64,000 nt of DNA from Candidatus Bathyarchaeota archaeon (GCA_963701045.1 OY969560.1:871144-935143), one strand, 5' to 3'; positions 1 to 16,391 are shown, counted from the first letter of the stretch. The notes: generated from the sequence alone by a model not told the origin. Translations and numbers: made by a program.

Positions 1-741
1 TTCTTTATCATTCAAACTCTTCATCAAAGTGTTAACCAAAATGATTTCCATGTCATACTCGCGGCAGACTTCAATAGCCTTCAGCTTCATATCTAAGAGT
101 TCTCTGCCTCTGATTTTCTTGTTGAAGTCTTCATGGAAACTGTCAAACGATAAATAGACGATGTTTAGCCCGTTATCTTTCAGTCTCTTTGCCAACCCTG
201 GCGTATCAACAAGGTGTGTCCCGTTAGTTGCCAAAATAGTCATGAATTTTAGCCTGTGGGCGGCAGCGATGATTTCAGGCATATCCTCCCGTTCTAAGGG
301 TTCTCCGCCTGAAAAGAGGATTGCTGGCGGTTTGGGGTTTGCTTTAGCTACAAACTCGAGCATGTCTATGAGTGCTTCTTTGGTTGGTTCATAATCGACT
401 TTTTCTTGCTCTGGAAAAGTTGAGAAACAAACGGCGCATTTGAAGTTGCAGCGTTTGGTTACATCAATTACTCCTATAACCGTTCCTGAAGCATGGTTGT
501 GGCAGGTTTCACAGATGTATGGGCAGCCTTGTGGGTTTTTGGGAGAGTTCAAGTCCCCGAGGTATTGGAACTGGTCATAGGTTTGCATGTGATTATAAAC
601 TTCTGTGCTTTGCCAATGTGTCGCATCAAAACTTCCGTGTTCGGGGCATTGTTTGCTGATTCTTATTTTGCCGTTAGCTTGAGTTAATTGAGCATCGATT
701 TTTTTCTGACATTCAGGACAAATACTCTTGGTTTGACTGAT
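1..741 (-). CDS. Radical SAM protein of the tetraether lipid synthase (Tes/GDGT-MAS, MJ0619) family, divergent; 3' end outside the window
   Basis: Not in the ORF track; translated by hand. Motifs: QTKSICPEC...KQCPEHG (rubredoxin-like), GCPYICETCHNH (auxiliary cluster), IDVTKRCNFKCAVCF (CX3CX2C), LFSGGEP, ATNG, VYLSFD, KLKAIEVCR. No in-frame ATG/GTG/TTG at the 5' end; ATC at 741 follows GGAGG. Confidence 0.85.
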   Translation of the reverse strand, partial: MSQTKSICPECQKKIDAQLTQANGKIRISKQCPEHGSFDATHWQSTEVYNHMQTYDQFQYLGDLNSPKNPQGCPYICETCHNHASGTVIGVIDVTKRCNFKCAVCFSTFPEQEKVDYEPTKEALIDMLEFVAKANPKPPAILFSGGEPLEREDMPEIIAAAHRLKFMTILATNGTHLVDTPGLAKRLKDNGLNIVYLSFDSFHEDFNKKIRGRELLDMKLKAIEVCREYDMEIILVNTLMKSLNDKE

Positions 742-742
742 A

Positions 743-1633
743 TTATGCCCCTCCCAATATGCGAGATATCGCCTGAACTATTAACGCTAATGGAAGCAAA
801 ATCATAGACATAGTTACAATGCGCTCATACTTGCGTATGTTCGCTACTACGGTTGAAGAGGAAGTTACCAGACTTACTGATGAGTAAATTAGAAGAGCAC
901 TCCAAAGTAGGATAAGTGGTAGATAGTAAATGTTAAAATTGCCGACAAAAATTGGTAACGGTGCTAAAATCCCAGTCAATGTAAAGAAAACTGCCGCGGC
1001 TTTAACTGAACCAGATATACCGATTTTCTTAGGCAATGTGGGGTAGCCGACTTTTAAGTCGCCTTCAAGACTAAGAACATCACGTAACACGTTTCCACCG
1101 ATTGTTCCAAAAGCAATTGGGTACAAACTTAGAGAAATCAAACTTAAGGTAGGAGGAGCAGAAACAGTTGCTTCTCCAAAAAGAAATGCGGTTCCAGTTA
1201 AAATTCCAATTAAAACGTTCGCTACAAAACCCGATTTGCGTTTAACAAGGATCGAATAAACTAAGAGCAGCGCGCAATCTATTGCTATTATTGCAAAGCT
1301 CAACAGGTTTATGTAGGCAGCCATAACTAGACCAATGGCAAAAAGCACACCTGAAACTGCCACCACTTGTTTTAAAGAGAGAGCTCCTGAGGGGATTGGT
1401 CGTTTTGGTTTGATGATAGCGTCGCTTTCTCTATCAAAGTAGTCGTTAATTGCAAAGCCTGCGGAAGTTATGAATGCCATAGAAAAGAAAATCAGCAATA
1501 GCGTTTGTAGGCTGATGTTTAAAGGATGGAGTGAAATAGCAAAAGCAGTTAGAACTGATAAGCCACCAGTCATCAGCCAGTAGGGAAGACGCAGCAGCGC
1601 GATTAATCCCTTAGCCGGCGTCGGCTTACTCAT
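743..1633 (-). CDS. UbiA-family prenyltransferase, digeranylgeranylglyceryl phosphate (DGGGP) synthase-like
   Basis: NDYFDRESDAIIKPKRPIPSG first Asp-rich motif, YSxxxKR, DVLSLEGDLKVGYPTLP second motif, multiple TM helices. Confidence 0.85.
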   Translation of the reverse strand: MSKPTPAKGLIALLRLPYWLMTGGLSVLTAFAISLHPLNISLQTLLLIFFSMAFITSAGFAINDYFDRESDAIIKPKRPIPSGALSLKQVVAVSGVLFAIGLVMAAYINLLSFAIIAIDCALLLVYSILVKRKSGFVANVLIGILTGTAFLFGEATVSAPPTLSLISLSLYPIAFGTIGGNVLRDVLSLEGDLKVGYPTLPKKIGISGSVKAAAVFFTLTGILAPLPIFVGNFNIYYLPLILLWSALLIYSSVSLVTSSSTVVANIRKYERIVTMSMILLPLALIVQAISRILGGA

Positions 1634-2574
1634 ACCGATAGTTTCCTGTCGGCAATGACTTCTTTGATGCTTTCTTCAAGAGGAATTTTCGGATTCCAAT
1701 TCAGTTCTTTTTTGGCTTTGCTTATGTCAAAGTGAATTTTTGTTACATCTCCTTGCCATGAAACACCTGTTGTTGTAACAAATGTTTTCTTTTCTAAATT
1801 GAGAATTTTCAGCATCATTTTGGCAAGGTCAAGTATAGTTATACAATTGCCATAGCCAAGGTTGAAAACTTGTCCATTGGCGAAATCTTCTGAACCTACT
1901 GTTACCAGCGCATCAACAACGTCTGAAACATTAACAAAATCTCTTGACTGCATTCCTGTGCCAATGATTTCTAATTTGCCTGGGTTCTTTGCAATTTTAT
2001 CTAAAAAGTCGTGGATTACGCCGTGGCATCTTAAGCCGTAGACGTTAGCGAATCTTGTAATAGCAATGTCTAAGCCGTATTGGCTGCGGTACATGTCGCA
2101 GTATTCTTCGCCTACCACTTTGGATAAACCATAGCATGAGAATGGGTGAAAACCATAGCTTTCAGGAGTTGGAAAAACAGTTGGATTTCCATACACAGCG
2201 GCGCTTGATGCAAAAACCACTTTAGCGTCGTTTTTGCGAGCTTTTTCCAGAACTTGCAGGGTACCTTTGGCGTTGGTTTCAAAATCTACAAGTGGATTCT
2301 CCATTGAGTAGCCAACGACAACCTGTGCTGCTAAATGGTATATTAAATCGATTTTTTCGGTGCTGAGGAGTTTTTTTAAATCAAGTATGTCTGCTTTGAT
2401 AAGTTTGACTTTGCCCACGTCTTTGACGTTTTGCATTGTGCCGCTTGATAAATTATCATAAATAACCAAGTTATCGGTTAAACCTGAGAGGCGCTTTGAC
2501 AAATGATACCCAATGAAGCCTGCGCCGCCAGTAACCATGACTTTTTTCCCTTTCAAGTCCCCCATAAAGTTCAC
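1630..2574 (-). CDS. NAD-dependent nucleotide-sugar epimerase/dehydratase (GalE-like extended SDR)
   Basis: GGAGFIG, HLAAQ, ASSAAVYG, YGLSK, RFANVYG, QSRDFV. Confidence 0.92.
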   Translation of the reverse strand: MNFMGDLKGKKVMVTGGAGFIGYHLSKRLSGLTDNLVIYDNLSSGTMQNVKDVGKVKLIKADILDLKKLLSTEKIDLIYHLAAQVVVGYSMENPLVDFETNAKGTLQVLEKARKNDAKVVFASSAAVYGNPTVFPTPESYGFHPFSCYGLSKVVGEEYCDMYRSQYGLDIAITRFANVYGLRCHGVIHDFLDKIAKNPGKLEIIGTGMQSRDFVNVSDVVDALVTVGSEDFANGQVFNLGYGNCITILDLAKMMLKILNLEKKTFVTTTGVSWQGDVTKIHFDISKAKKELNWNPKIPLEESIKEVIADRKLSV

Positions 2575-2613
2575 GACAAAGGCTATATTCTATTTTCGTT
2601 AGTTGTAGGGTAT

Positions 2614-3450
2614 ATGTCCAATGTGAAAACTATAAAAACTTTTAGGGATTTGCTATCTTTCTTAACTATAATTCCTGTTTGCGAAGATTCCAACTATATT
2701 TTTAATACAGCAGACCACATGTACCTATTCACACTCATCGGAGCCTTCATAGGAGTACTTGCAGGAGGCTACTATTTAGCCGCAAACTACCTCGTCAACT
2801 TCCTGCTAAGCGAAATCAATAACTTCATTGCGTTACCAACAGTCCTTATTGGAAGGCTTGTTGTCGCAGCTATGACCGTAGCTTTCCTGATGGTCATTAC
2901 AGGTCTTCAACATTTTGATGGAATAATCGATTTAGGAAACACATTTGGACTAAGAAACATTCAGGACCGCAAAGATGTGGCTCACGCATGGACAGTCACC
3001 TATTGGGGAGCACTGCTGGCGTTCATTGTGGAGGTTGGAGCTTTCTTTGGACTCTTTCTGATTAATCCAGTTTTTGCTTTTGGAGCAATCCTTGCAGCTG
3101 AAGCTTCAGCTAAACTTGCCATGGTCACAATCGCCTGGGTTGGCAAACCAGCGCACAAGGGGTTAGGCTCCATTTTCCTTGCAAAAGCCAAAAAGAAACT
3201 CAACATAACAGCCTACATTATTGCATTGGCAGTTTCTTTCCCAATCTTTACATGGCAGCTTGGTCTGACTAAAGGGTTGGTTTGCATGGCAATAGTTTTA
3301 GTTAGTGTTCCTGTTGCGTTTTTGATGAGGGCGATTTCTAACAGAGTGTTTGGCGGAGTTTCAGGTGACACTATTGGAGCAACTAACGAGGTGGCAAGGA
3401 CAGTTACTTTAGTTTTGCTTGCGGTTGCATTGTGGGCGTTGGCGCTATGA
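2614..3450 (+). CDS. cobS: CobS-family (cobalamin-5'-phosphate synthase-like) membrane protein, divergent
   Basis: LSFLTIIP, GLQHFDGIIDLG, FGGVSGDTIGATNE; start re-placed at ATG 2614. Confidence 0.75.
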   Translation: MSNVKTIKTFRDLLSFLTIIPVCEDSNYIFNTADHMYLFTLIGAFIGVLAGGYYLAANYLVNFLLSEINNFIALPTVLIGRLVVAAMTVAFLMVITGLQHFDGIIDLGNTFGLRNIQDRKDVAHAWTVTYWGALLAFIVEVGAFFGLFLINPVFAFGAILAAEASAKLAMVTIAWVGKPAHKGLGSIFLAKAKKKLNITAYIIALAVSFPIFTWQLGLTKGLVCMAIVLVSVPVAFLMRAISNRVFGGVSGDTIGATNEVARTVTLVLLAVALWALAL

Positions 3451-4070
3451 AGGTTCCAGCGTTAATTATGGCAGGCGGAAAAGGCTCTCGCATGGGGTTG
3501 CCAGTCGAAAAACCCCTTTTGCCCTTGCTTGGTAAACCCTTGATTGATTGGGTAACCCTAGCAGTTGCAAGCGCCAAAAACATTTCAGAGTTTTTTGTGG
3601 TAACCAGCAGCAATACAACTCAAACAGAGAAGCATTGCCAAAGCATGGGCTGGAAAATCTTGCATACAGACGCTAAAGGCTACCATAACGACCTAAAACA
3701 AGCAGCCTCAATAGCTGGGTTAACAGGTCCAATCTTAACTGTTCCGGCTGATTCACCTGCAGTTACAGGAAAATTCCTCGACAAAACCATAAACCAATTC
3801 CAACACAGTGGCAAAGATTTTTTTGCGGTTTTCATTCCCATTAAATCCCGGGAAAGCTTAGGTTTGTCTGTAGATTCCACTGATGAGTATATGGGCAAAT
3901 GGTATGCTGTTTCAGGCGTTAACATTGTTGATGGAAGCAAAATTCAGAAAGAAGGCAAAATTGAAACAAGCGCTATAATAACTGAAGAGGTTGAAGTGTT
4001 GCTAAACATTAACACGCTTATAGATTTAGAAGTCGCAGAGAAGATAATGCGCCAAAACGCAAAGTTATAA
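3447..4070 (+). CDS. cobY: CobY-like adenosylcobinamide-phosphate guanylyltransferase (NTP transferase)
   Basis: ALIMAGGKGSRM..EKPLL, GYHNDL, SGVNIV, LNINT..DL; ATGA overlap with cobS. Confidence 0.8.
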   Translation: MKVPALIMAGGKGSRMGLPVEKPLLPLLGKPLIDWVTLAVASAKNISEFFVVTSSNTTQTEKHCQSMGWKILHTDAKGYHNDLKQAASIAGLTGPILTVPADSPAVTGKFLDKTINQFQHSGKDFFAVFIPIKSRESLGLSVDSTDEYMGKWYAVSGVNIVDGSKIQKEGKIETSAIITEEVEVLLNINTLIDLEVAEKIMRQNAKL

Positions 4071-4127
4071 TTTTGGTTTCCGGTAGACCATTAAATAGAT
4101 GGATGAGATCCATGTCGATCCAGCCAA

Positions 4128-4375
4128 CATTCAACATGACCTTACAACAACCAGTGATTTTTCAGCCAAAAACCATTATTGAAAAATGACTCCGCAACTA
4201 CAACAATTATAAAACAAAACCCAAAAACATGGAAAATCCAACAACAACCAGTCAACAACCCAACAGGCAATACGGTACAAAGCAAACCAAGAACACAAGT
4301 TAAAGCACAAACTGAAAATTTGGTTGTGGCACAGGGGAGTCAAACAACAACAACCAGACAAGAAGAAAAAAAACG
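4128..4375 (+). repeat. A/C-rich dispersed repeat, copy A
   Basis: TTCAACAT..CAACCAGTG..TTTT..AACCAT..TTGAAAAA start; 33/36 nt match to copy E (ACAAAGCAAACCAArAACACAAsTTAAArCACAAAC); ends AAGAAGAAAAA. Confidence 0.7.
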
Positions 4376-4477
4376 TGCCTAAGAGCTATTGTGTTTAAGC
4401 TTGAGTTAATCTATAGTAAAAAAGAAGCTGCTTATTTTTCATGTCAGTTATCGACTCATTTTTGCTACAACCTGCTT

Positions 4478-4660
4478 ATTTCAACATGCGTTATTTGCAC
4501 AACTAGTGGATTTTGCGCTACAACCATGTTTAAAAAACACCAATTCACTACAAGCAAAACCAGAAAAACCCAAAAAACAAACCAAAGCAAAAACACAACT
4601 CAACACACAACTTTCAAAAAACCCACAGCTGCTACTACAACAACCAAAGAAGAAAAATTA
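4478..4660 (+). repeat. A/C-rich dispersed repeat, copy B
   Basis: Exact 24-mer AACCAGAAAAACCCAAAAAACAAA shared with copy E; exact 26-mer AACTCAACACACAACTTTCAAAAAAC and 14-mer CTACAACCATGTTT shared with copy D. Confidence 0.8.
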
Positions 4661-4793
4661 AGAACTAAATGTTAATCATGCGCGGACAGCTGTGGCATAA
4701 AGCAAGATTTGGTCTTTTTGCTATTTCAGGGAAATCTTTAACATTCCCAGGTAACCTATCTAACACTTGACGTCTTACGGAGGAGACTTTGAG

Positions 4794-6212
4794 TTGAGCT
4801 TGCTTAGCTACGATACTTTTTGGAACGCAGTGATAACTCTGCCTATGACCAAAAAAATGCTCAAGCTCTCGCTCAAAAAATGTCCTTCATGCGGCAGAAC
4901 CGTTCTTGAAGCAGCCTTAGATAATTACTCCGGAAAAACAGACAAGCAATGTGGCAAATGCAGCGGCCTATATTCTCAAATCATCGGTTTCTGGGTTGAA
5001 TTTCTTCGCAGAAGCTTAAACATTAAACGCGAAAAAGTTAACAAGCTCCTAGCGGACCCATACGCCAAAAGAGCTGTCTTAAACCTCGCCAGAAGCTTCA
5101 CGTACATGGGCATAAAAAAACCCATTTCACTTTATGCACCTTTCCTTATAGTTTGGGATTTTACACACAAATGCAACTTGCAATGCAAACATTGTTACTC
5201 AAACAGCGGTACAATCCGCGAAGAAGAACTCACAACAAAAGAAGCCATATCAGTTGTGGATCAGATTGCAGATTCAGGAGTTACTGCTTTGGCTTTTTCC
5301 GGCGGCGAACCGTTAACGCGAAAAGATTTTTTTGAAGTTGTACGACATGCAGCAGACCGTGGGTTATATGTGTCAGTGGCTACAAACGGCACCTTGCTAA
5401 CCAAAGAAAACGTGCAGAAACTCAAGCAGGCAGGAGTAAACTACCTTGACATAAGTATTGATGGTGCATCCGCTAAAACTCACGACGAGTTCAGAGGGGT
5501 TCCAGGAGCGTTTGATAAGGCTATGGCTGGGTTGAAAAACTGCGTAGAAGCGGATTTGTGCGTTTGCATTGCGACCACAGCTACAAAAAGCAACCTTGAA
5601 GAAATGCCGGCAATTATCGATTTGGCTGAAGAAATAGGGGCAGAAAGGTTCACAAACTTTAATTTTGTTCCTGCAGGAAGAGGCAAAGCACATTACGACC
5701 AAGACCTCTCACCTCAAGAGCGCGAGAAATTGATGCGGTACCTTTTGGCTCGAATGTCAAAGGGCTGCAAAACAACCATATTGACAACTGCACCTCAGCT
5801 AGCCCGTGTTGGATTGCAATGTCAAGGATCAAGTGGAACAGGCGAAGTAACCATGTCTATGGCACATATGCAAACCGTCAAAATTACAAAAAAAGCCGTG
5901 CCCTTAGCAGATTTTATTGGAGGATGCGGCGCCGGTAGACTTTACTGTTCATTGTCACCCCAGGGTGATGTGCATCCCTGTGTGTTTTTGCCAGTTAATG
6001 TTGGCAACCTAAAAACTGAAAAATTCGAAGACATCTGGCTTAACTCGCTACTTTTCAAGTCGTTCCGTAACAGGGCAAACCTTAAGGGTTCATGCTCCAA
6101 ATGCGATTACAAGTATATCTGTGGCGGTTGCAGGGCACGCTCGGCAGCTTACCATAACGGCGACATGCTTGATGGCGACCCTGGCTGCATAATGGGAGTG
6201 AAAGGTGCCTAG
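4794..6212 (+). CDS. Radical SAM/SPASM protein with Cys-containing N-terminal extension; resembles the GMGT synthase (Gms) family
   Basis: CPSC...CGKC N-terminus, APFLIVWDFTHKCNLQCKHCY, FSGGEP, LADFIGGCGAGRLY...PCVFLP, CSKCDYKYICGGCRAR; TTG 4794 follows GGAGGAG. Radical SAM/SPASM is secure; Gms is recalled similarity only. Confidence 0.85.
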   Translation: MSLLSYDTFWNAVITLPMTKKMLKLSLKKCPSCGRTVLEAALDNYSGKTDKQCGKCSGLYSQIIGFWVEFLRRSLNIKREKVNKLLADPYAKRAVLNLARSFTYMGIKKPISLYAPFLIVWDFTHKCNLQCKHCYSNSGTIREEELTTKEAISVVDQIADSGVTALAFSGGEPLTRKDFFEVVRHAADRGLYVSVATNGTLLTKENVQKLKQAGVNYLDISIDGASAKTHDEFRGVPGAFDKAMAGLKNCVEADLCVCIATTATKSNLEEMPAIIDLAEEIGAERFTNFNFVPAGRGKAHYDQDLSPQEREKLMRYLLARMSKGCKTTILTTAPQLARVGLQCQGSSGTGEVTMSMAHMQTVKITKKAVPLADFIGGCGAGRLYCSLSPQGDVHPCVFLPVNVGNLKTEKFEDIWLNSLLFKSFRNRANLKGSCSKCDYKYICGGCRARSAAYHNGDMLDGDPGCIMGVKGA

Positions 6213-7170
6213 ATTGCCCAACTCAAAAATTGTAAAAATCTTCCAAGCCAAAGGCGACACAAGAGACATCGTTAAACAAGCCGTCGTAGGTTCAGGGCTC
6301 CGGGGAAAACGCAAAATTTTCATTAAACCTAACCTTAGCCACCCTGAATATATCCCTGGAGTGGTTACGAGTCCAGAGTTGATGCAGCAGCTTGTCGGTT
6401 TGCTCCGGGACGGCAACAGCGAAGTGATCGTTGGCGAATCTAATGGTTTTAACTATCCGTGCTGGACTGCGTTTGACAAAACCGGCATGCAAGACGCAGT
6501 TAAACGGGCAGGCGGCACAGTGATTAACCTTTCAGAGGACAAGGTGGTTAAAGTAAAATTTGCTGACGGCGTACTGCTCAAAGAACTCTATTTGCCCAAA
6601 ACCATTCTTGACGCCGACGCTGTTGTAGATTTGCCGCTTATGAAAACCCACGAATTTGCTGCTTACAGCGGCGCCATCAAAAACCTTTTTGGGTGTATTC
6701 CGAGCAATAAACGCATCTATCTTCACCCTTACCTGCCAGAAGTATTCTTTAGGCTCTACACTGTTTTCAAGCCACAACTAACTATTATGGACGCCAGAAT
6801 TGGCATTGAAGGCAACGGCCCAACCAAAGGTAAACCCGTAAAAATGGATCTTATTTTAACAGGCAACGATGCATTAGCCATTGACATAGTTTGCACTAAA
6901 ATCATGCAATTAGATTGGAAACAAACATATCTGAACTACATAGCCAAAAAAACAAGCTTCTACGAATCAACATTAAGAGTTGATGGATTACAGGTAGACA
7001 CGGTAAGCCGCAAATTTGAACCACCCAAAATAGACTTGCCCGTGAAAGCTCAAATGATGATTTATCAACATGAATACGCCACTAAATTCCTTTTTTGCAG
7101 TTTAGATATCGTTAAGCTTTTTCAGAGGGTAACTAAGGCGTATAGGCAAGAACCAATAGAAATCGCTTAA
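6205..7170 (+). CDS. DUF362 family Fe-S protein
   Basis: IKPNL, VGES, LPLMKTH, GAIKNLFG, IMDA...EGNGP; overlaps the radical SAM stop codon. Confidence 0.85.
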   Translation: MPRLPNSKIVKIFQAKGDTRDIVKQAVVGSGLRGKRKIFIKPNLSHPEYIPGVVTSPELMQQLVGLLRDGNSEVIVGESNGFNYPCWTAFDKTGMQDAVKRAGGTVINLSEDKVVKVKFADGVLLKELYLPKTILDADAVVDLPLMKTHEFAAYSGAIKNLFGCIPSNKRIYLHPYLPEVFFRLYTVFKPQLTIMDARIGIEGNGPTKGKPVKMDLILTGNDALAIDIVCTKIMQLDWKQTYLNYIAKKTSFYESTLRVDGLQVDTVSRKFEPPKIDLPVKAQMMIYQHEYATKFLFCSLDIVKLFQRVTKAYRQEPIEIA

Positions 7171-8363
7171 CTGAGAACCTCGTCATAAACTTCCATTGCG
7201 TCTTTTACAACTATGCGCCAATCATACTGGTCCACAATGGTTTTTCTCGCCTGCTGACCCATTTCCGCCGCTTCAGATGGATGCTCAAGCAAGAAAAGAA
7301 TACGATCGCTGAACTGTTTAACGTTGAAAGGCTCAACCAAAAAGCCGTTTTTACCGCTTTCAATTGTTTCAGGAATTCCACCAACCCACGTTGTAACTAC
7401 CGGCAAACCTGACGCAAGCGCTTCTAAAACTGCAAATGGATGATGCTCATAAAAAGTGCTGAACGCGAATACGTCAGCTGCTTGGTAAAGTTTGGGCAGT
7501 TTTTTATCTGGGTAGTAGCCTGTGAAAATAAGGTTATCTTTTACACCCACTTTTTCCGCGTGAGCAATGAGTTTATGCATTTCGTCGCTTTGACCTTTGC
7601 CTGAAACCACGAATTTCGCATTTTTGAAACGTTTCATAATTGGAGGCATACTTTCAATAAGAGTAAACAATCCTTTGCGGGCATATAATCTGCCAACCGA
7701 GAGAATAAGCAAGTCATCGGGGTTAAAACCAAGCTCAGATTTGATTTTACGTTTGTCCTGGGCAGGCTGGAACTTTTTAATGTCAACCCCATTGTGGATA
7801 ACTCGGATTTTGCTTTCAGGGATATGGTAATATTCGGTGAGTTCTCTTTTTGTGAAATGACTTACCGCTATTATTTTTTTGGCTCGTTCCAGCATTTTTT
7901 CCTCAAAAATTCTTAGGAACCAATTGAAGCTTACCATGAATTTCTCGTTGGCATTGAGGCGGCTAAATGGCTCACCTCGGATAGCTTCTGCCTCCCCCTT
8001 CCAAGTTGAATGCACAGTGCAAATGGTCGCTTTTCCAAAGTTTGGTGGAACTGCAAAATTGGGAGTCAGAGGCAGGTTAACGTGTGTAACGTCTATGTCC
8101 ATGTTTGAGCGTTCACTGTTAAGTTTGCGGTAGCTGTTGGCAGCAAGAAGGAAGGATTTTACTATGGGCGTTCTGGGGATCTGAAGGAAGAACACTTTGA
8201 GTTGCTCATTAACAGTGACATCCAATGTTTGGTTGGATCCAGTTACAATGCAGATGCGGTAGCCGTTTTTGAGAAGCTCATTTGACAGGTAATAGACATA
8301 GGCACCTGTGCCGCCAGAAAGAGGCCAATACTCAGGCGAAACAAAACATATACTATGCGCCAT
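7167..8363 (-). CDS. GT4 family glycosyltransferase
   Basis: EYWP..GG, IAVS, IHNGVD, GRL..RKG, E...FAVLEALASGLPVV. Confidence 0.92.
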   Translation of the reverse strand: MAHSICFVSPEYWPLSGGTGAYVYYLSNELLKNGYRICIVTGSNQTLDVTVNEQLKVFFLQIPRTPIVKSFLLAANSYRKLNSERSNMDIDVTHVNLPLTPNFAVPPNFGKATICTVHSTWKGEAEAIRGEPFSRLNANEKFMVSFNWFLRIFEEKMLERAKKIIAVSHFTKRELTEYYHIPESKIRVIHNGVDIKKFQPAQDKRKIKSELGFNPDDLLILSVGRLYARKGLFTLIESMPPIMKRFKNAKFVVSGKGQSDEMHKLIAHAEKVGVKDNLIFTGYYPDKKLPKLYQAADVFAFSTFYEHHPFAVLEALASGLPVVTTWVGGIPETIESGKNGFLVEPFNVKQFSDRILFLLEHPSEAAEMGQQARKTIVDQYDWRIVVKDAMEVYDEVLS

Positions 8364-9357
8364 GCCTTCTTCCCCCTTTTCCCACCAAAAAGTTAACTGT
8401 TGTTTTTATTGCACCCACAAACCATGCGAAAGAACGCACAAAATACAGCACCACAAGTCGCCAAGTGGAAACGTCATGGAATTTTAATTTTATTTTCGCC
8501 GCTGAATAACCGAAATAGATAAGCATGAACGCTAAGATTGCGGCTGAAATGTACCAAAATAATCTGATTAGCGGAACTATTCCAACGATGAATGACAAGA
8601 CGGTCGCCAAAAGTAAGATGGGTTGAATGTTCATGCCGACATCAGTGATTTCGTCGCCTCGGGCTAGGTGACCATGTTTAAAGTAAAGACGTAAAGTGTT
8701 TTTGCCGTACTGCATTTGTTGGCGATAATAAGCTCGAAGAGTTGGACGGTTGAAGTGGTAACATACCGCTTTGGGTTCATAAGCTATTTTGTATCCTTTA
8801 GCGCTAACCCTGAAACCGAGGTCTGTGTCATATTGGCTTGGTAGTTCTTCATCCCATCCACCAGCTTCATCAATTAAAGCTCTCTTCATGAGCAGATTCA
8901 TGGTGGCAATGCGACCTGTATAATGTCCTATGCGACTATATCGGTTCTTGAGTTCATAGCCGATGCTTTTTGCCCAAGGATTATTGCTGTTCCAAGTTTC
9001 AATAGTTCCGCTGACTCCGGCTACTTGTGGTTCATCTAGATGAGGCACTAGAAGTCTTAGCCAATTGGGTTCAACCTTTGCGTCTGAATCAATAAAGCCC
9101 AAAATAGGGTACTTTGCGATTTTCATCACGTAGTTGTAGGCTGCTGGACAATTTAGTTTTATAGATACAACTTGGACTTGGAGTTCTTGGGCTATTTCTA
9201 ATGTTTTGTCTTTTGAGAGGCCATCCATCAAAATGACTTCAAAATGGTCTTTCGGATAATCCAGTGACAAGATGGATTTGAGACATTCCATGATGGTTAG
9301 CTCATTATTGTATGATGCCACTATGATTGAAACTTTAGGAAGTTCTTGAGCAGCCAT
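8353..9357 (-). CDS. GT2 family glycosyltransferase with C-terminal TM helices
   Basis: VSIIVASYN, DGLSKD, FIDSD (DxD), DTDLGFR, RQQMQY. Confidence 0.9.
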   Translation of the reverse strand: MAAQELPKVSIIVASYNNELTIMECLKSILSLDYPKDHFEVILMDGLSKDKTLEIAQELQVQVVSIKLNCPAAYNYVMKIAKYPILGFIDSDAKVEPNWLRLLVPHLDEPQVAGVSGTIETWNSNNPWAKSIGYELKNRYSRIGHYTGRIATMNLLMKRALIDEAGGWDEELPSQYDTDLGFRVSAKGYKIAYEPKAVCYHFNRPTLRAYYRQQMQYGKNTLRLYFKHGHLARGDEITDVGMNIQPILLLATVLSFIVGIVPLIRLFWYISAAILAFMLIYFGYSAAKIKLKFHDVSTWRLVVLYFVRSFAWFVGAIKTTVNFLVGKGGRRHGA

Positions 9358-9361
9358 CCTG

Positions 9362-10060
9362 TTACCCCTTCGAATAAGCTAAAACTATTGAAAGCAAAAT
9401 TTTGGAGCCGTCAACCAGCGGATCCACGCCTGATCTGCCGTATGTCCGCTGCTGAAATGTAATCGGTACCTCGGTGACTCGGAAATGTTTTTTGGCTGTC
9501 TTTACAAGCATTTCAGACTCTATTTCGTATCCGCCTGATTTCAGCTTTTGGCTTTTCAAGACATCACGTGTCATAGCTCGATAACCTGATTGGCTATCTG
9601 TTATTGCAACTCTCGTTAAAAGCTCAATAAAGTCGTTGAAGATTCGCACACCAAAAGCGTTGAGTTTTCTAGCGGCAACATGCTTTTGTTTTAGGTATCT
9701 TGAACCAATCACTAAGTCAGCTTTGTTTTGTAGAACTGGTGCCAAAACTTCATCAAGTTCTTCGGGCCAGTGGGAACCATCTGAGTCAATTGTAATTATT
9801 ACGTCACCTTTTGACTTCAGAAAGCCCGCTCGGAGGGCATAACCTTTGCCTAAATGTTCTTTCAATGTAAAAAGTCTAATTTTGTATTTTTTAGCTATCT
9901 GAAGCGATCGGTCATACGAGCGATCGTCCACAACAAGAATTTCGGTTTGTATGCCGATTTTCTGCGTTGCTTTCTTAGTCCGCTCGATTATGTCGCCTAT
10001 AGTGGATTGCTCGTTGTACATGGGAATTATTATGGAAAGCAGCATTTGAGGTTGCTTCAC
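9362..10060 (-). CDS. GT2 family, DPM1-like (polyprenol-phosphate glycosyltransferase)
   Basis: SIIIPMYNE, VVDDRSYD, GKGYALRAG, IDSDGSH, GSRY, TDSQSGYRA, EVPI. Confidence 0.9.
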   Translation of the reverse strand: MKQPQMLLSIIIPMYNEQSTIGDIIERTKKATQKIGIQTEILVVDDRSYDRSLQIAKKYKIRLFTLKEHLGKGYALRAGFLKSKGDVIITIDSDGSHWPEELDEVLAPVLQNKADLVIGSRYLKQKHVAARKLNAFGVRIFNDFIELLTRVAITDSQSGYRAMTRDVLKSQKLKSGGYEIESEMLVKTAKKHFRVTEVPITFQQRTYGRSGVDPLVDGSKILLSIVLAYSKG

Positions 10061-10147
10061 TTAGCTTTTAGATGCCAATGGAAGACCTTATAAAGTTTGG
10101 CACAGCAACTCTGTAAGCAAACTAAACCTAAAGAGCTTGAACCCCAC

Positions 10148-10690
10148 ATGGAAACCGCCACCAAAGTTTATTCAGACAGAAAAATGTGGTTTTCAATGTG
10201 GTTCCTGGGGGCAATCGTGACTTTCGGAGCAGCTTTCTTTCCAATGTATTACCGTCTTGTACAAGGTAGAAACAAACATTTCCAACATGACAATGAGTGG
10301 AGAGAACAAATTTCAGTGTACCTGAAAAAACACGGCAAAGAGGCACCTGCAGTAAACGAAAGATTGTTGGTTCGTCATGCAAAGGTGTGGGCTGCAAGCA
10401 TTATTCTGATCATACCAAACTTTGTCATCTTGTATTTACTGTCAAAGGATTTAGCTGTGCATGAACATAAGCAGGATACTTTTTTAACGACGGCTTTCCC
10501 AGAACGGCTGTTCATGCCTCAAACAATACCGATAAAAACTTATGTTTTAATCACAATTGTTACTTTGGGTGTCGGCGGAATTTACTGGCTATATAAAGTT
10601 GTTAACTTATATAATGCCCACTTTAAAGCACAGTCTCTGGTTGAAAAAGAAATAGGCAGACTAATGGAGGAACAAGAAGTTGTCGAGTAA
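10148..10690 (+). CDS. Membrane protein (DUF4234-like, two internal repeats)
   Basis: Repeated IVTFG...YYRL..RNKHF / IVTLG..GIYWLY..YNAHF units; overlaps cobD start. Confidence 0.55.
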   Translation: METATKVYSDRKMWFSMWFLGAIVTFGAAFFPMYYRLVQGRNKHFQHDNEWREQISVYLKKHGKEAPAVNERLLVRHAKVWAASIILIIPNFVILYLLSKDLAVHEHKQDTFLTTAFPERLFMPQTIPIKTYVLITIVTLGVGGIYWLYKVVNLYNAHFKAQSLVEKEIGRLMEEQEVVE

Positions 10691-11795
10691 CTGCAAAGAA
10701 CGCAGATTTATCAGCCATGGAGGAGATATCTGGGGTTTCAGCCGAAGATGTAATGTTCCCATAGAAGAAGTGCTTGAATTTAGTGGACCCATAAACTTTC
10801 TTGGACCATCACCAAAAGCTGTCGAAGCCGTCAAAGATTACGCTAAATACATAAAATACTATCCTGACCCAAATCCGATTGAATTCAAAGAAAAAATCGC
10901 AAAATACGTAGGGCATGGTGTGGCAGCGGAAAAGGTTATTTTAGGCAACGGCTCCATCGAGCTAATTTACGCCATATCCGAAGTTTTGCCAAATTGTTTT
11001 AATGCGGTGATTCCTGTGCCCTCTTTCTCCGAATATGAGAAAGCTGCGCTCCGCGTAGGTGGCAAAGTGATTTTTGTCCAATTGCCAGAAGATTTCTCGC
11101 TTAACAACGAGGAAATAAAAAAGGCAGTAACGAATGAAACAAGAATCTTATGTATATGTAACCCCCACAGCCCATCTGGAAAACTTTACAGCAAAGCAGA
11201 GCTGACGGATCTTTTGGATTTCTGTGAGAAACGGGATATCATTTTTAGCGTTGACGAGAATTATATCGAGTTTGCTGATAAAGGAGACGAAAACACTTTA
11301 GCAGGTTTGGTTAACGAGTACGAGAACCTTTTTGTTATTCGTTCAATCACCAAATTCTATGGCATGGCTGGTATACGTTTCGGCTACGGGTTGGCTTCAA
11401 ACAGTTTAGTTAAGAAGTTGGAGGATGTTCGTTTGCCATGGAGCATTAATGGCTTAGCCTGTTTTGCCACATTGGCGGCGTTTAACGACAAAGAATTCAT
11501 TAAAAACACCAAAGTTGTCATCGCCGAAAACCGACTTGAACTTGCTAAGGAGCTTGGTGAAATTGATGGTTTGTATGTTTACCCGTCCACAACCAACTTC
11601 CTGCTTGTCAAAATCCAAAAAGGCAAAATCACCAGCACCAAACTGAAAGAAGCCCTAACTAACCAAAGAATCCTTATTCGTGACTGCTGCACGTTCATGG
11701 GTTTAGACGATCACTACTTCAGAATAACCATACGCTCGTCCAAAGACAATCTAAAACTAACAGAAGCCATTGCAAGAATAATGAAAGATAATTAG
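10680..11795 (+). CDS. cobD: L-threonine-O-3-phosphate decarboxylase CobD (class I/II PLP enzyme)
   Basis: N-terminal HGG, YYPD, GNGS.ELI, PSFSEY, CNPHSPSG, DENYIEF, RSITKFYGMAGIRFGY, ILIRDC. Confidence 0.8.
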   Translation: MSSNCKERRFISHGGDIWGFSRRCNVPIEEVLEFSGPINFLGPSPKAVEAVKDYAKYIKYYPDPNPIEFKEKIAKYVGHGVAAEKVILGNGSIELIYAISEVLPNCFNAVIPVPSFSEYEKAALRVGGKVIFVQLPEDFSLNNEEIKKAVTNETRILCICNPHSPSGKLYSKAELTDLLDFCEKRDIIFSVDENYIEFADKGDENTLAGLVNEYENLFVIRSITKFYGMAGIRFGYGLASNSLVKKLEDVRLPWSINGLACFATLAAFNDKEFIKNTKVVIAENRLELAKELGEIDGLYVYPSTTNFLLVKIQKGKITSTKLKEALTNQRILIRDCCTFMGLDDHYFRITIRSSKDNLKLTEAIARIMKDN

Positions 11796-11951
11796 AAGAA
11801 ACTAAATGAAAACATCTTTTAGTTTAAGAGCTTAAGTAAATCGAATAAGGCGTTTTTAAATCTTGATTTGAGTAATCTTAGTTTGGTTGGGTTAACTAAA
11901 CCAGTAAAGTGCCAAAATGTGTTGAGATGAAGCTAAGTCTATTTCCTTTAT

Positions 11952-12206
11952 TTACCTGTATTTCAGTTTCAGCGCCAAGATTGCAACACTTTGGATAAGA
12001 GCCAAGGAGTTTGCAAGAATGATCGCTATATCTTGGCGAAAAAACCCGTAGATGAACCATAAAGAGACGCCACCGCAATAGAGCGTGAACATCAGAGCTG
12101 AGATGTCTTTAGTTGATTTTGTCCTGTAAATCTTCATTAGCTATGGCAGAAGGCACATGGTTGTGAAAGCTGCGGCAATTAATCCTAAAACCGTTATTGA
12201 GTCCAT
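11952..12206 (-). pseudogene. SemiSWEET/PQ-loop sugar transporter with an in-frame TAG
   Basis: MDSITVLGLIAAAFTTMCLLP*LMKIYRTKSTKDIS...LWFIYG...IILAN; TAG at 12141-12143 replaces the Gln of the PQ motif. Confidence 0.85.
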
Positions 12207-12506
12207 CATACTATTGCATCTCAATTAACATTCGATAACATTTCATATTTAATTTGAAAATTTATTTTTGAAGAATCCATTGGGAAAAAAATTCTTCTGT
12301 CAGAGTAGGAACGTCAGGATTTCGTAATCATAATGTTAATAAAATCGGTTGATCCAATCCAATTGTAGAGCGACTTTCTACTACAAGGTCTAATTGAGAT
12401 TGAGTGTGATGGGAAAAACAACAAGTTTTTCAAAAAGGTTAAAACCTAAGAAATCATGCCGAAACCGCAAATCAACCCATAACCCGCAATACCTAAAAGT
12501 GTTACT

Positions 12507-14687
12507 GTGATTAGTCCAACAGTGCGGCAGGCTATTAGCCGAGGGTTAGATCGAAGAAAATTTTTGAAGCTATCAGCAATAACGGCTGGAGGCGGCTTGG
12601 CGGCAATTGTTTTTGCAAGCTACGTTGAACATGCAGGGTTCATGGTTAACGAAGTAAATGCACTACTAAATCCGAATAGACACGTTAATTTCGCAAGAAA
12701 TGGTTAACGCTTTTGACACGCTTCAGCAAACATTTTAGACCCACTTAGCATTCCAAAATTTGAAAACCAGCTAACTTCTCCGCCAATCGTTTATCAGCCG
12801 ACTGTTATCACTAGTCAAGGCACAGTTATTAGACATGAATACACAGTAACCATGGCTAGTTTTAAAGAACAGATCCTTCCTCCATCTATGAATCTATTCA
12901 CTGAAGTTTGGGGTTATGGCGGTGAGGCTATTGATCCATTAACCAAAGAGCCTTTAGGATTCATGCAAAGCAGCCCCGGACCGACCTTTGAAGCAATCAG
13001 AGGCATACCGATTAAGGTCAAATGGCAAAACAATATCAGCACACAATACATTTTTCCAGTAGATCCCACAATTCACTGGGCAAACACTAAAAACGATCCC
13101 ATGCCAACTCCGCCTTTCCCTACATATCCCCCAGGATTCACAAACTTTCAAAGCCCAGTTCCATTGGTAACTCATCTTCATGGCGGAGAAAACCAATCGT
13201 ATTCAGATGGTGGCCCTGAACAGTGGTTTACTGCAGAGGGAACGCACGGGTCAGCATATAGCACTGTTGAGGAGACTGATTCAAATGCTGCAGTTTACTA
13301 TTATCCCAATGCACAACAACCTACGACTCTTTGGTATCACGACCATGCCTTAGGGTTAACCCGTCTAAATGTGCAGTCAGGGTTAGCTGGTTTCTATATT
13401 ATTCGAGAGCTAAAAATAGAAAACGATAAAGTTGCCCCCATTTTGCCGACTGGAAAATACGAAATGCCTCTTGTTATCCAGGATAGAACATTCAACACTG
13501 ATGGCTCATTGTACTATCCAACTGTGGGGTCTGTCGCTGCTAATCATCCCTATTGGGTTAACAGTTTTCAAGGTAATGCAATTATTGTAAATGGCAAAGC
13601 TTGGCCCAACATGAACGTTGACAAAGCACAATACAGGTTCAGGCTTTTAAACGGATCAAACTCACGTTTTATTAACATTAACTTATCAAACGGTCAATCA
13701 TTTATCCAGATTGGAACGGATGGAGGCTACCTAAAAGCGCCCGTAACGCTCACTTCCTTAGCTTTGGCACCTGCTGAAAGAGCTGACATTATAGTTGACT
13801 TCTCTAAATTGCCGTCTGGAACAAAAATCGCAGTTCAAAACACCTCTTTGCTTACGAGCAGTAACGAAGAAAAACAAACATTGGGGCAAATAATGCAGTT
13901 CACCGTTACTGATGCTAATGGACCAACACCATTCAGCATTGCCTCCTCTCCATTACCCTTCAACCCTACATTATCAACAGCTACTTTTCCTACTTTACCT
14001 AATCCTAGCAAGCAAAGAATTCTAACATTATACGAAGTCATGGATGAACAAAACAATACGCCCTCTCAAGCGCTTCTGGACGGGCAGAACTGGGACGCTG
14101 AAATTTCAGAAACTCCTCAGCTTGGCACAACTGAAGACTGGATAATCGTTAACACAAGCATGGATGCACACCCGATTCATCTTCATTTAGTCCAGTTTCA
14201 GCTTGTCTCGCGCCAACCCTTTGACAACACAAGCTATTTAAAAGAATGGATAAAACTAAACGGTCAACCCCCATTCAACCACCCCACAAATAACGTAAAA
14301 TCCCTCTCCAATTATTTGACAGGCACCATAACCAATGCTCAACCAGAAGAGCAAGGCTGGAAAGACACTCTGACTATTTACTCAGGCGAAGTTGTAACAC
14401 TAAGAGTGCGTTTTGCTCCACAAGACGGCTCCAGCTATACCTTTGATGCTACAAAAGGACCAGGATACATTTGGCATTGCCACTTGCTAGAACACGAAGA
14501 CCACGAAATGATGCGCCCATATATAATCTACTCCACGGTGGCTAATTATCCCATAAAAACAGCTCTTGTTATCGCTGTGGGGGCAGCAACTGCGGCAACC
14601 ATACTAATAGTTTATAACCAAAAAAGAAAAAAACAACAATCCCAAGAGAAAACTGCTGAACAAGGCAACGTTGTGAGTGATGATTAA
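12507..14687 (+). CDS. Multicopper oxidase (CotA/bilirubin oxidase-like) with Tat signal and C-terminal membrane anchor; interrupted near 12675-12720
   Basis: DRRKFLK twin-arginine signal in the 12507 ORF, in the same frame as the 12852 ORF but separated by TAA/TGA. Cu motifs THLHGG, WYHDH, HPIHLHL, WHCHLLEHEDHEMM; hydrophobic C-terminal helix followed by KRKK. Confidence 0.88.
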
Positions 14688-14902
14688 ACTGGAGATTCTT
14701 GTATAGTTTTATTATTATCTAGGCGTTATCAAACGTTTGATTCGTAATTTCTCTCTAAAAACAAAAAACGGAAACATACAACAGAAAGGTTGTTTGAAGT
14801 TAGATGTTGACGATTGATGGAAACTTTGCTACGAGAAGGTTTAAATAAATACTGTTTCATTTCGTATATGCTTTCAATTTAATTAACGGATGAAAATTTA
14901 GA

Positions 14903-15391
14903 ATGTCACAAGAATATCGCTATATACTACGTATCATGGGTACAGATGTTCAAGGTACCTTGAAGACTTCTTACGCAGTTGCACAGGTAAAAGGCATAAG
15001 CCTTAGCCTATCAAATGCAATTCTCAAAAAAGCAGGAGTAAACCCTGACTTACGAGTAGGCTACTTGGTCGAGTCTGACCTTTCAAAAATTGAAGAGGTC
15101 ATAAAAGACCTGACTAAATTTGGGATGCCAACATGGATGTTTAACAGGCGAAAAGACTCGGAAACGGGAAAAGACAAGCATCTTCTAAGTGCGGATTTAG
15201 TTTTAAGAACAAAAATGGATATTGACGAAGCCAAAGACATAAGGTCTTGGCGAGGATACCGCCATGCTTACAGCCTCAAAGTTCGAGGTCAACACACAAA
15301 AACCACTGGCAGAGCCGGCAAAGCTTTAGGAGTTAAGAAGAAGACCCTTATGCAGAAACCTGGAGCAGCCCCAGCAGAAGGAGGCAAATAA
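14903..15391 (+). CDS. rps13: 30S ribosomal protein S13 (uS13)
   Basis: YILRIMGTD, WMFNRRKD, SWRGYRH...KVRGQHTKTTGR. Confidence 0.97.
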   Translation: MSQEYRYILRIMGTDVQGTLKTSYAVAQVKGISLSLSNAILKKAGVNPDLRVGYLVESDLSKIEEVIKDLTKFGMPTWMFNRRKDSETGKDKHLLSADLVLRTKMDIDEAKDIRSWRGYRHAYSLKVRGQHTKTTGRAGKALGVKKKTLMQKPGAAPAEGGK

Positions 15392-15393
15392 AT

Positions 15394-15987
15394 ATGGGCG
15401 ATCCAAAGAAGCAACGTAAAAAATTCGATACGCCACGTTTCCGATGGCGAAAAGACATCCTTCAAGAAGAACTAAAACTTCTGGGTCAATACGGCTTACG
15501 TAACAAACATGAACTCTGGCGTCATAAAACAACCCTTTCAAAAACCAGAGGTATTGCACGTTCACTAATCAGCAAAACAGCTGAAGAACGAGCAAAGACA
15601 GAATTCGAGCAAGTTACAAAGCTCAAGAAACTTGGAATTCTACCAGATACCGCAGTGTTAGATAATGTCTTAGACTTAACCATCGAAGACATTTTAGAAC
15701 GCAGATTACAAACCATAGTGTTCCGCAAAGGCTTAGCAAGAACAATTTTCCAATCTAGACAACTAATCACACACGGTCACGTAACCATTGACGGACGCAG
15801 AGTCACAGTGCCAGGTTTCATTGTTCCAAAAGCAGACGAGCCAAAAGTAGTTTACTCACCAGAGAGTGCAGTTGCAGCTCCAGCACACCCACTTAGACTT
15901 GGATTAACCGTTGTAGCAAAGCCACCTGAAATTAGGCAACCACAGCGTGGCGGAAGACGAGGCGGACGCGGAGGCGGAAGATTTTGA
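15394..15987 (+). CDS. rps4: 30S ribosomal protein S4 (uS4)
   Basis: [42 protein letters not shown]. Confidence 0.97.
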
Positions 15988-16391
15988 GCGCTCCAAGCAA
16001 CAAACGTAGTGAAAGATGGGGTATAGTTCACATCTTCAGCAGCTATAACAATACATTGATTCACATAACTGACATAAGTGGCGCAGAAACAATCTCCAGA
16101 ACCAGCGGCGGTATGTTCGTTAAAGCCGACCGAATGGAATCTTCACCGTACGCAGCTATGCGAGCAGCAACAGGCGCAGCTGAAGTGGCTCGAGACAAAG
16201 GAATTACAGCTATCCACATCAAAGTCAGAGCACCCGGCGGTAGTGGACCGAGAACTCCCGGACCAGGAGCACAAGCAGCAATCAGAGCACTGGCAAGATT
16301 TGGCTTTAGAATTGAACGCATCGAAGAAGTTACGCCAATTCCACATGATGGCACAAGAAGACCCGGTGGCAGAAGAGGAAGAAGAGTCTAA
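15984..16391 (+). CDS. rps11: 30S ribosomal protein S11 (uS11)
   Basis: [41 protein letters not shown]. Confidence 0.97.

Follow-up and report, generated by a model that had tools for sequence, protein, structure and literature searches.

The first 11,795 nucleotides of the DNA analysed here, a 64,000-nucleotide stretch from Candidatus Bathyarchaeota archaeon (GCA_963701045.1 OY969560.1:871144-935143; hereafter, the window), hold a gene island in which a second set of membrane-lipid genes stands back to back with a second set of genes for finishing vitamin B12, a pairing that is new with respect to the literature we found. The island is a lineage-specific accessory set of the Bathy-6 Bathyarchaeia and occurs in two families. 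Every key gene in it is an accessory second copy; the genes are paralogues of canonical ones, keep their synteny, are distributed together and encode intact catalytic motifs. Judging from the sequences, the lipid half, which includes the Tes-family radical S-adenosylmethionine (SAM) enzyme Tes2 and the prenyltransferase UbiA2, is most likely an accessory tetraether-tailoring module. The other half, CobS2, CobY2 and CobD2, together with a CbiB2 encoded elsewhere in the genome (collectively, Cob2), is tentatively read as a cobamide-finishing set tied to B12-dependent lipid enzymes. All substrates and products given below for the island enzymes are predicted ones. No paper describing this lipid and cobamide gene island was found in the literature, and nothing relevant was found there on Bathyarchaeal second cobS or cobY genes or on multi-copy loop-assembly genes.

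The window corresponds to G000:C1:871144-935143 and lies on a single 1.06-Mb contig rated 68.7% complete. Related genomes measure 2-3 Mb, and the absence of a gene from this assembly is weak evidence that the organism lacks it. Gene content was called with Pfam and NCBIfam profile searches, which bore out the genes that a first-pass annotation had listed for positions 1-11795, including the coupling of the Tes, UbiA and epimerase genes. The closest loci belong to Bathyarchaeia of the 'Bathy6' / Candidatus Bathycorpusculum kind, whose habitats are peat, soil and arthropod guts.

Conservation and distribution of the island

A CobS2-specific peptide scan of one genome per species yielded 154 relatives; the 80 best loci, each taken with flanks of 10 kb, were mapped by tblastn with 24 query proteins. 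The gene order Tes2-UbiA2-Epi<>CobS2-CobY (Epi, sugar epimerase; <>, divergent genes) was found in all 70 related loci whose flanks were long enough. A strict automatic count reached 66, and in the remaining four the order shows through split or sub-threshold matches. Beyond this core, the glycosyltransferase GT2a lies on one side and the radical SAM/SPASM gene on the other in 36 of 54 loci, and at least ten other arrangements occur. In G040 and G229, which belong to a second family of the same order (f7), the whole island is present at 38-56% identity in a different gene order; Epi-UbiA2-Tes2 and CobS2-CobY2 are still neighbours, and GT2c-GT2b-GT4b<>memU-CobD2 is kept.

A class-wide survey covered 401 Bathyarchaeia genomes, in which f1 and f7 are two families of one order. 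With thresholds of at least 146 bits to the CobS2 profile for CobS2-type proteins, E<=1e-40 for UbiA2 and E<=1e-88 for CbiB2, the three proteins occurred in the same 12-13 genera, all of them in f1 and f7. The few mismatches in distribution trace to contig ends or to fragmented assemblies. In the other families, the canonical CobT-CobS-CobY(-CobZ) cluster is the only one present. As the genomes counted are kin, the counts do not represent independent events; independence is clearest for G413, a subset of genus g24, and G327. Of the seven genomes in g24, UbiA2 and CobS2 are confined to the same three, two of which also reach the CbiB2 threshold. The same-genus relative G413, assembled as a single 3.05-Mb contig, keeps CobT, CbiB1, CobS1, CobY1, Tes1 and a CobD-like gene (35% identical to CobD2), and that contig contains no island, Tes2, UbiA2, CobS2, CobY2 or CbiB2.

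The first-pass annotation had proposed a dedicated module for a non-standard membrane lipid and had named an unconserved neighbourhood and sole canonical orthologues as findings that would speak against it. The neighbourhood is instead kept across f1 and f7, and canonical copies exist: Tes1, CobS1, CobY1 and CobD1 elsewhere in this genome, and UbiA1 in its relatives.

In phylogenetic trees, CobS2 of both families (f1 and f7) groups in a single clade (support 99) that excludes every canonical Bathyarchaeial CobS, and the CobY2 proteins likewise make up a clade of their own (support 99), indicating that the CobS2-CobY2 pair diverged before the families split. Tes2 of f1 and f7 likewise groups together (support 100) within the full-length Tes proteins, at the end of a long stem; the tree leaves both descent from Tes1 and transfer possible as its origin. 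The nearest Tes homologues outside Bathyarchaeia (in Aenigmatarchaeota, in a probably bacterial contig with TonB-receptor and Por-tail genes, and in Thorarchaeota) have no UbiA, short-chain dehydrogenase/reductase (SDR) or Cob neighbours; thus, the island is not a wider Tes context.

The second cobamide genes and their canonical copies

Four cobamide enzymes, CobD, CbiB, CobY and CobS, are doubled in this genome. CobS2 scores 101.4 bits against TIGR00317, under the cut-off of 110, while CobS1 scores 150.6. CobY2 and CobY1 (113.9 and 143.7 bits against TIGR00454) are both under the curated cut-off, and CobY2 aligns end to end with M. jannaschii CobY (3RSB/2MZB) over residues 9-209 with 63-64 bits. 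CobD2 reaches 275.4 bits against TIGR01140, under the cut-off of 290.55, compared with 301.6 for CobD1, to which it is 36% identical; CobD1 adjoins CbiB1 at G000:C1:979618-980688. CbiB1, near 979 kb, and CbiB2, at 804 kb and 67 kb from the island, are 41% identical and both pass the CbiB equivalog cut-offs. A second CobT or CobZ was not found in this genome, and CobT is single in all five relatives searched. The duplicated steps are therefore the corrinoid-handling ones, namely, linker synthesis, attachment, activation and condensation. That cobD is itself a second copy, that the set includes a second cbiB, and that canonical cobT-cobS-cobY-cobZ genes lie just upstream of the window go beyond the first-pass annotation.

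We compared the motifs of 17 CobS2 with those of 25 canonical CobS sequences. CobS2 keeps HxDGxxD and GDxxGAxNE (H100, D102, G103, D106, G251, D252, G255, A256, N258 and E259), and 30 near-invariant residues are common to CobS2 and the 25 canonical proteins. At the same time, MHD..GAGG of canonical CobS is AHxWTV..GA in all 17 CobS2, the Asp of the ..GD.. motif is replaced by N109 in both families, and an insert of 18-23 amino acids follows the first helix pair, again in both families. The AlphaFold2 model of CobS2 has a pLDDT of 89.7; a Foldseek search of the PDB with this model gave nothing below E 0.06, and no solved structure was matched by sequence either. A search for CobS2 homologues was saturated by orthologues, all of them named adenosylcobinamide-GDP ribazoletransferase, and gave no outgroup information.

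CbiB2 lies in a block of its own (L140:4005-11086, equivalent to G000:C1:802004-809085), in which its neighbours are a Dph6-like gene, an Amidohydro_3 gene and three genes for B12-binding radical SAM proteins. Amidohydro_3 and several genes of the B12-binding radical SAM type likewise surround it in six of six relatives, f7 included, and another radical SAM/SPASM gene is nearby in four of the six. The distance between this block and the island is a few kb (~13 kb at most) in G003, G014, G040 and G229. One of the B12-binding radical SAM genes at CbiB2 is split into N- and C-terminal open reading frames (ORFs), here in different frames, and the same pieces occur in G229, G389 and G008; instead of being an error, the split may be conserved and reflect a recoded stop or an enzyme that is genuinely made in two pieces. 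Two paralogues of the Dph6-like PP-loop ATP pyrophosphatase adjoin cobT (L001:10228-10905) and cbiB2 (L140:6664-7257), and such a gene stands beside the cobamide cluster in other Bathyarchaeia, both in a different family (L126, L130) and in the same genus (L127). The Dph6-like protein may be an undescribed cobamide-pathway enzyme.

The CobY types are not tied to their CobS partner, as they are found at swapped loci: a CobY2-type gene is beside CobS1 in G389 and at the CobS1 locus in G008, and a CobY1-type gene is beside CobS2 in G389. In family f7, the CobY2 type is the only CobY, although CobT, CbiZ, two CbiB and two CobS are present. The canonical-type CobS of f7 (L124:3983-4702, L125:4004-4738) has neither cobT nor cobY as a neighbour and sits on a very long branch (1.04); these genomes have no CobY1.

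Cobyric acid synthase (CobQ/CbiP, TIGR00313) was not found at E<=1e-20 in G003, G014, G040, G229 or G413, where CbiZ, CbiB, CobT and CobS are present, which suggests that these five relatives are corrinoid salvagers rather than de novo producers. The absence of cbiB, cbiZ and cbiP from the window, to which the first-pass annotation had drawn attention, is correct for cbiB and cbiZ as far as the window goes, but both genes are present in this genome outside it; cbiP, which was not searched for here, was not found in the five relatives.

The lipid genes

Tes2 scores 467.6 bits against NF045702 on its full frame of 490 amino acids, which meets the equivalog cut-off of 450. Tes1, located at G000:C1:251689-253110, scores 665.5 bits, and the two proteins are 38% identical. 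The zinc ribbon of Tes2 is encoded before the first ATG of the frame, and no ATG, GTG or TTG lies upstream in frame; taking the downstream ATG as the start lowers the score to 398.5 bits. An in-frame ATC at positions 739-741, after a GGGAGGGG box, aligns with the ATG, GTG or TTG start of 69 of 71 orthologues. Translation of Tes2 thus probably begins at this ATC (741), which would represent initiation at a near-cognate codon or else a mutation of the start codon that reduces expression in this strain. Two other genomes also have no canonical Tes2 start; one of them has ATA.

UbiA2 has the digeranylgeranylglyceryl phosphate synthase (DGGGPS) of M. jannaschii (MjDGGGPS, 6M31) as its best solved relative, at 112 bits versus 52 for chlorophyll synthase, and keeps both Asp-rich motifs, NDxxDxxxD and DxxxxxGD. 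It is under all NCBIfam DGGGPS cut-offs (165 vs 269, 155.5 vs 296 and 105 vs 353 bits). The UbiA1 proteins of relatives, to which UbiA2 is 28-30% identical, score 148-162 bits to Pfam, and that of G003 reaches 235.6 bits to NF009523 compared with 165 for UbiA2. The description of UbiA2 as a divergent DGGGPS-like enzyme in the first-pass annotation applies solely in comparison with the better-scoring UbiA1 of relatives; UbiA2 is the one UbiA of this partial, 69%-complete assembly, and G003 has exactly two. No second geranylgeranylglyceryl phosphate synthase (GGGPS) was found in the five genomes searched; with one GGGPS per genome, the acceptor or prenyl donor of UbiA2 may differ from that of DGGGPS.

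The radical SAM/SPASM enzyme scores 319.5 bits against AhbD over residues 127-475, under the cut-off of 500. Its N-terminal domain of 126 amino acids carries a conserved Cys4 set (Cys39/42/62/65), and the AlphaFold2 model places six helices before residue 115, with a mean pLDDT of 54 (62-85 over residues 21-110, lower beyond). The published architecture of Gms is an AhbD-like core with an N-terminal six-helix extension, and many Gms homologues have been reported in Bathyarchaeota and in peat (PMC11214058, PMC11186832). The enzyme matches this architecture in its core and in having an N-terminal extension, the six helices being a low-confidence prediction, and is by this likeness tentatively assigned as Gms-type, in agreement with the Gms-like label that it had been given earlier. 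The DUF362 gene adjoins it in most related loci, f7 included. Among the glycosyltransferases, the order GT2c-GT2b-GT4b is kept in f1 and f7, as is the adjacency of memU and CobD2, and the best-scoring families for GT2a and GT2c are AglJ and the dolichyl-phosphate hexose synthases (160 bits, below the family cut-offs). The best solved relatives of Epi are GalE-1 of A. fulgidus (3EHE) and the Pyrobaculum protein 3ICP.

Gene layout and flanking genes

The features of the island are listed in Table 1. Judging from gene starts and ends, they are consistent with four tight transcription units: Epi-UbiA-Tes on the minus strand; CobS-CobY, the spacer and rSAM/SPASM-DUF362 on the plus strand; GT2c-GT2b-GT4b on the minus strand; and memU-CobD on the plus strand. 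Epi is the first gene of the Epi-UbiA2-Tes2 operon. Its ORF overlaps that of UbiA2 by 4 nt, and the UbiA2 stop (743-745) comes 1 nt before the Tes2 start position (741). The rSAM/SPASM and DUF362 genes overlap by 8 nt, memU and cobD2 overlap by 11 nt, and the glycosyltransferase operon and memU diverge across 36 bp (10061-10096). The 39-bp region between Epi and CobS2, with its TATA-like box, may act as a common promoter; over 78 related loci, the median length of the corresponding gap between matches is 46 bp. The CobS2 start was set at the Met at 2614, as in nearly all aligned orthologues, and not at 2503, where the listed ORF began.

Table 1. Features of the island; positions are counted from the first nucleotide of the window.
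Feature	Position	Strand	Remarks
Tes2 (Tes-family radical SAM), 490 aa	1-741 (whole gene L001:14269-15741)	-	Runs off the window start
UbiA2, DGGGPS-like prenyltransferase	743-1633	-	PF01040 123 bits
Epi, archaeal GalE-type UDP-hexose 4-epimerase-like SDR	1630-2574	-	Pfam Epimerase/GDP_Man_Dehyd matches; GalE 167 bits
Divergent intergenic region Epi/CobS2, 39 bp	2575-2613		A/T-rich TATA-like box
CobS2, diverged cobamide-synthase paralogue, 278 aa	2614-3450	+	PF02654 95.6 bits; TIGR00317 101.4 bits
CobY2, MobA-like nucleoside triphosphate (NTP) transferase, CobY paralogue	3432-4070	+	TIGR00454 113.9 bits
A/C-rich spacer, 696 bp	4071-4766		Peculiar to this genome
Gms-type radical SAM/SPASM enzyme	4767-6212	+	AhbD 319.5 bits over residues 127-475
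DUF362 protein	6205-7170	+	PF04015 170.7 bits
GT4b glycosyltransferase	7167-8363	-	Pfam and NCBIfam matches
GT2b glycosyltransferase	8353-9357	-	Pfam and NCBIfam matches
GT2c, AglJ/Dol-P-hexose-synthase-like	9362-10060	-	Pfam and NCBIfam matches
memU, small membrane protein, about three hydrophobic segments	10097-10690	+	Weak DUF4234 match
CobD2, threonine-phosphate-decarboxylase-like pyridoxal phosphate (PLP) enzyme	10680-11795	+	TIGR01140 275.4 bits

Relatives have approximately 115-130 bp in place of the spacer at 4071-4766, which contains only weak short tandem repeats. An Rfam scan of positions 1-16000 of the window gave no match, and in particular no riboswitch in the 696-bp spacer. A 94-amino-acid ORF at 4391-4675 was rejected as a gene, having no tblastn match in the 80 loci; the ORF at L001:13441-14232 was likewise rejected, the two being non-conserved or stop-filled in the expected frame.

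Upstream of the window, locus L001 holds the CobY1-CobS1-CobT operon, the Dph6-like gene, CobZ and the glycosyltransferases GT4a and GT2a; the CobT-CobS1-CobY1 operon and CobZ are 2-7 kb from the window start. On the other side, a gap of approximately 1 kb with no convincing gene precedes a 611-amino-acid multicopper oxidase (PhsA/CueO-like, below cut-offs), which is followed by the genes of ribosomal proteins S13, S4 and S11 (window 12852-16391 in all). The oxidase and ribosomal genes mark the right-hand end of the island here.

Possible functions of the island

In the proposed lipid pathway, UbiA2 would form a diether, Tes2 would join the diether tails into a tetraether, and the Gms-type enzyme would cross-link the chains. 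The glycosyltransferases, using a UDP-sugar made by the epimerase, would add head groups, and the steps together would give a second, tailored tetraether species. Tes2 looks functional, as all metal ligands of the solved enzyme are kept in its sequence.

A role of the epimerase and glycosyltransferases, and perhaps UbiA2, in protein N-glycosylation or an envelope glycan on polyprenyl carriers, which would leave only Tes2 and the Gms-type protein as lipid enzymes, is improbable: the best matches of GT2a and GT2c to AglJ and dolichyl-phosphate hexose synthases (160 bits) and the fact that GT4 and GT2 families are not lipid-specific agree with it, but all those scores are below family cut-offs, no oligosaccharyltransferase or flippase was seen among the island Pfam and NCBIfam matches, and Epi shares one operon with UbiA2 and Tes2.

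For the Cob2 set, we tentatively favour cobamide finishing, with a probability that we place somewhat short of even. The Cob2 enzymes would keep the CobD, CbiB, CobY and CobS chemistry, acting on salvaged corrinoid, and their cobamide would serve the B12-dependent radical SAM enzymes (putatively Gmm/Grs/Ted-like) around cbiB2, which are co-inherited with the island. B12-dependent radical SAM enzymes of Bathyarchaeota modify glycerol dialkyl glycerol tetraethers (preprint 10.1101/2025.10.20.683597; PMC11214058). A corrinoid role is favoured because CbiB2 passes the cut-offs and sits among B12-binding radical SAM genes, f7 has only CobY2-type CobY, and the CobY types swap loci. The earlier suggestion that the cob genes could supply cobamide to B12-dependent lipid enzymes therefore gains from the constant company of CbiB2 and from the positional interchangeability of the CobY types, and it stands in part.

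Several observations weigh against cobamide finishing. The Cob2 genes have no B12 enzyme as an immediate partner; facing them are Tes2 and UbiA2 at 39 bp and the glycosyltransferase operon at 36 bp. The B12-binding radical SAM genes near cbiB2 are candidate lipid-enzyme genes that gave only generic class-B matches. Conserved core residues are lost from CobS2, CobS2 and CobD2 are under equivalog cut-offs, and the lower-ligand enzymes CobT and CobZ are single. A full duplicate set for the same reaction, with no obvious reason, would seem excessive in corrinoid salvagers. With a single GGGPS, the lipid branch would start only at the UbiA step, and no lipid or corrinoid data for this lineage were found in the literature.

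Several of these same observations lend weight to an alternative that we consider somewhat less likely, in which the Cob2 enzymes no longer act on corrinoids and instead build a GDP-activated amino-alcohol-phosphate head group or bridge on the lipid made by UbiA2, Tes2 and the glycosyltransferases. CobD2 would make the amino-alcohol phosphate, CbiB2 would link it as an amide to a carboxylate, e.g., that of a uronic acid on a glycolipid, CobY2 would activate the phosphate with GTP, and the membrane enzyme CobS2 would transfer it to a lipid hydroxyl, giving a phosphodiester-linked head group or bridge without CDP-archaeol. The two divergent units conserved in f1 and f7, Epi-UbiA2-Tes2<>CobS2-CobY2 and GT2c-GT2b-GT4b<>memU-CobD2, fit this arrangement. 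So do the doubling of only the four large-substrate enzymes and not of CobT or CobZ, the rewritten core motif and the insert of CobS2 in both families, and the apparent excess of two loop-assembly sets in salvager genomes. The Cob2 genes are, moreover, co-distributed with UbiA2 and absent together with UbiA2 and Tes2, not with CobS1. A chemical precedent by analogy may be seen in the Campylobacter capsule, in which serine phosphate is decarboxylated to ethanolamine phosphate that is amide-linked to glucuronic acid in the glycan (PMC12409886). On the other hand, the sole CobY of f7 is of the CobY2 type despite the cobamide salvage genes of that family, the CobY types swap loci, CbiB2 is above threshold and among B12-binding enzymes, and thirty core CobS residues are unchanged in CobS2; a concerted change of four enzymes would also be needed. 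We know of no archaeal lipid with an amino-alcohol-phosphate-linked head group of this kind.

It is rather unlikely that the two halves of the island have no functional link, such that Cob2 stems from a local duplication of the cobamide cluster, or from transfer to its vicinity, and lies beside the lipid genes by descent only. Cob2 would then be an alternatively regulated or substrate-shifted salvage or remodelling set, and the lipid and glycan genes would be independent of it. This agrees with the position of the island between canonical cobamide genes in f1, with its restriction to a fairly narrow clade (two families of one order), and with the loss in G413, where adjacent genes would go together in a single deletion whatever their function. 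The Amidohydro_3 protein found by CbiB2 in the six relatives could, speculatively, be a corrinoid amidohydrolase for remodelling. However, the five-gene core outlived every rearrangement seen, even between families whose CobS2 proteins are as little as 41% identical, and no junction outside it was kept throughout. Additionally, CbiB2 shares the distribution of the core, including the absence from G413, even though the two are physically separate in several genomes (by ~67 kb here), and intergenic distances of 36-39 bp imply shared control.

Peat, soil and termite guts harbour abundant Bathy-6 Bathyarchaeia, for which direct lipid measurements were not found in the literature. Tetraether lipids are widely used environmental proxies, and a second Tes/DGGGPS pair with a Gms-type enzyme predicts a distinct tetraether species from Bathy-6. 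A complete second set of linker and loop-assembly genes, co-inherited with lipid and B12-dependent radical SAM genes, is likewise undescribed in the literature found. If Cob2 feeds its cofactor to lipid-tailoring enzymes, the B12 economy would be linked to membrane remodelling. If it is repurposed, it would represent new head-group chemistry and a new route for polar heads or bridges on archaeal lipids, through wholesale recruitment of the B12 nucleotide-loop pathway. The genes are defined, and either outcome can be tested in existing archaeal expression hosts.

Comparison with known systems

Tes2 aligns with the tetraether synthase MJ0619 (Tes/GDGT-MAS; PDB 7TOL/7TOM; also MA_1486) over 481 residues of 7TOL with 379 bits. 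Compared with the metal-ligand list reported for MJ0619, which includes the labile Met of the C-terminal cluster (PMC9433317), Tes2 keeps the rubredoxin-like iron site CX2CX20CX2H (C8/C11/C32/H35), the N-terminal cluster CX3CX2C..H as CPYxCxxCxxH, the radical SAM motif CX3CX2C as CNFKCAVC, and the C-terminal cluster with its Cys-Met pair and PFC. Unlike known Tes, it is a second copy on a long branch, and a search of 1.8 billion representatives gave no relative with more than 37% identity outside the two Bathyarchaeia families. It is also translationally coupled to a UbiA gene, whereas the nearest outgroup Tes genes are not. In an unrelated system on metagenome contigs (P0191 and P0212, L148), fusions join an MJ0619-family radical SAM protein to a MobA-like NTP transferase that may or may not carry an HD domain, a further instance of a nucleotidyltransferase paired with this radical SAM family. 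These fusions adjoin a C_GCAxxG_C_C gene, and one contig also has methyltransferase, AMP-binding and His_Phos_1 genes. We rejected them as support for the island, as they match only the first ~320 residues of Tes2 and belong to a different system.

MjDGGGPS (PDB 6M31) is the closest solved relative of UbiA2 and has both Asp-rich motifs in common with it; UbiA2 differs in falling below the DGGGPS cut-offs and in that relatives also carry a better-scoring UbiA1. The radical SAM/SPASM enzyme resembles Gms of T. guaymasensis, P. furiosus (PF0647) and M. okinawensis in its AhbD-like core and N-terminal extension of approximately 100-126 amino acids, but it is coupled to a DUF362 gene, and DUF362 is not mentioned in PMC11214058.

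In the HS:2 capsule of C. jejuni (Cj1436, Cj1438C, Cj1435), a PLP decarboxylase makes an amino-alcohol phosphate that is joined through an amide to a glycan carboxylate, which follows the logic of CobD plus CbiB outside B12 synthesis. The decarboxylase of the Campylobacter capsule is CobD-like. The capsule system is bacterial, uses another amide-forming family and has no CobY or CobS step; thus, the likeness is one of logic only.

Compared with the archaeal cobamide pathway (CobD, CbiB, CobY MJ1117 of PDB 3RSB, and CobS), all four Cob2 proteins are full-length homologues of the known enzymes. They differ in being a second set, 33-41% identical to the canonical one, located away from cobT and paired with lipid and glycan operons, and CobS2 departs from canonical CobS in its altered core motif and added insertion.

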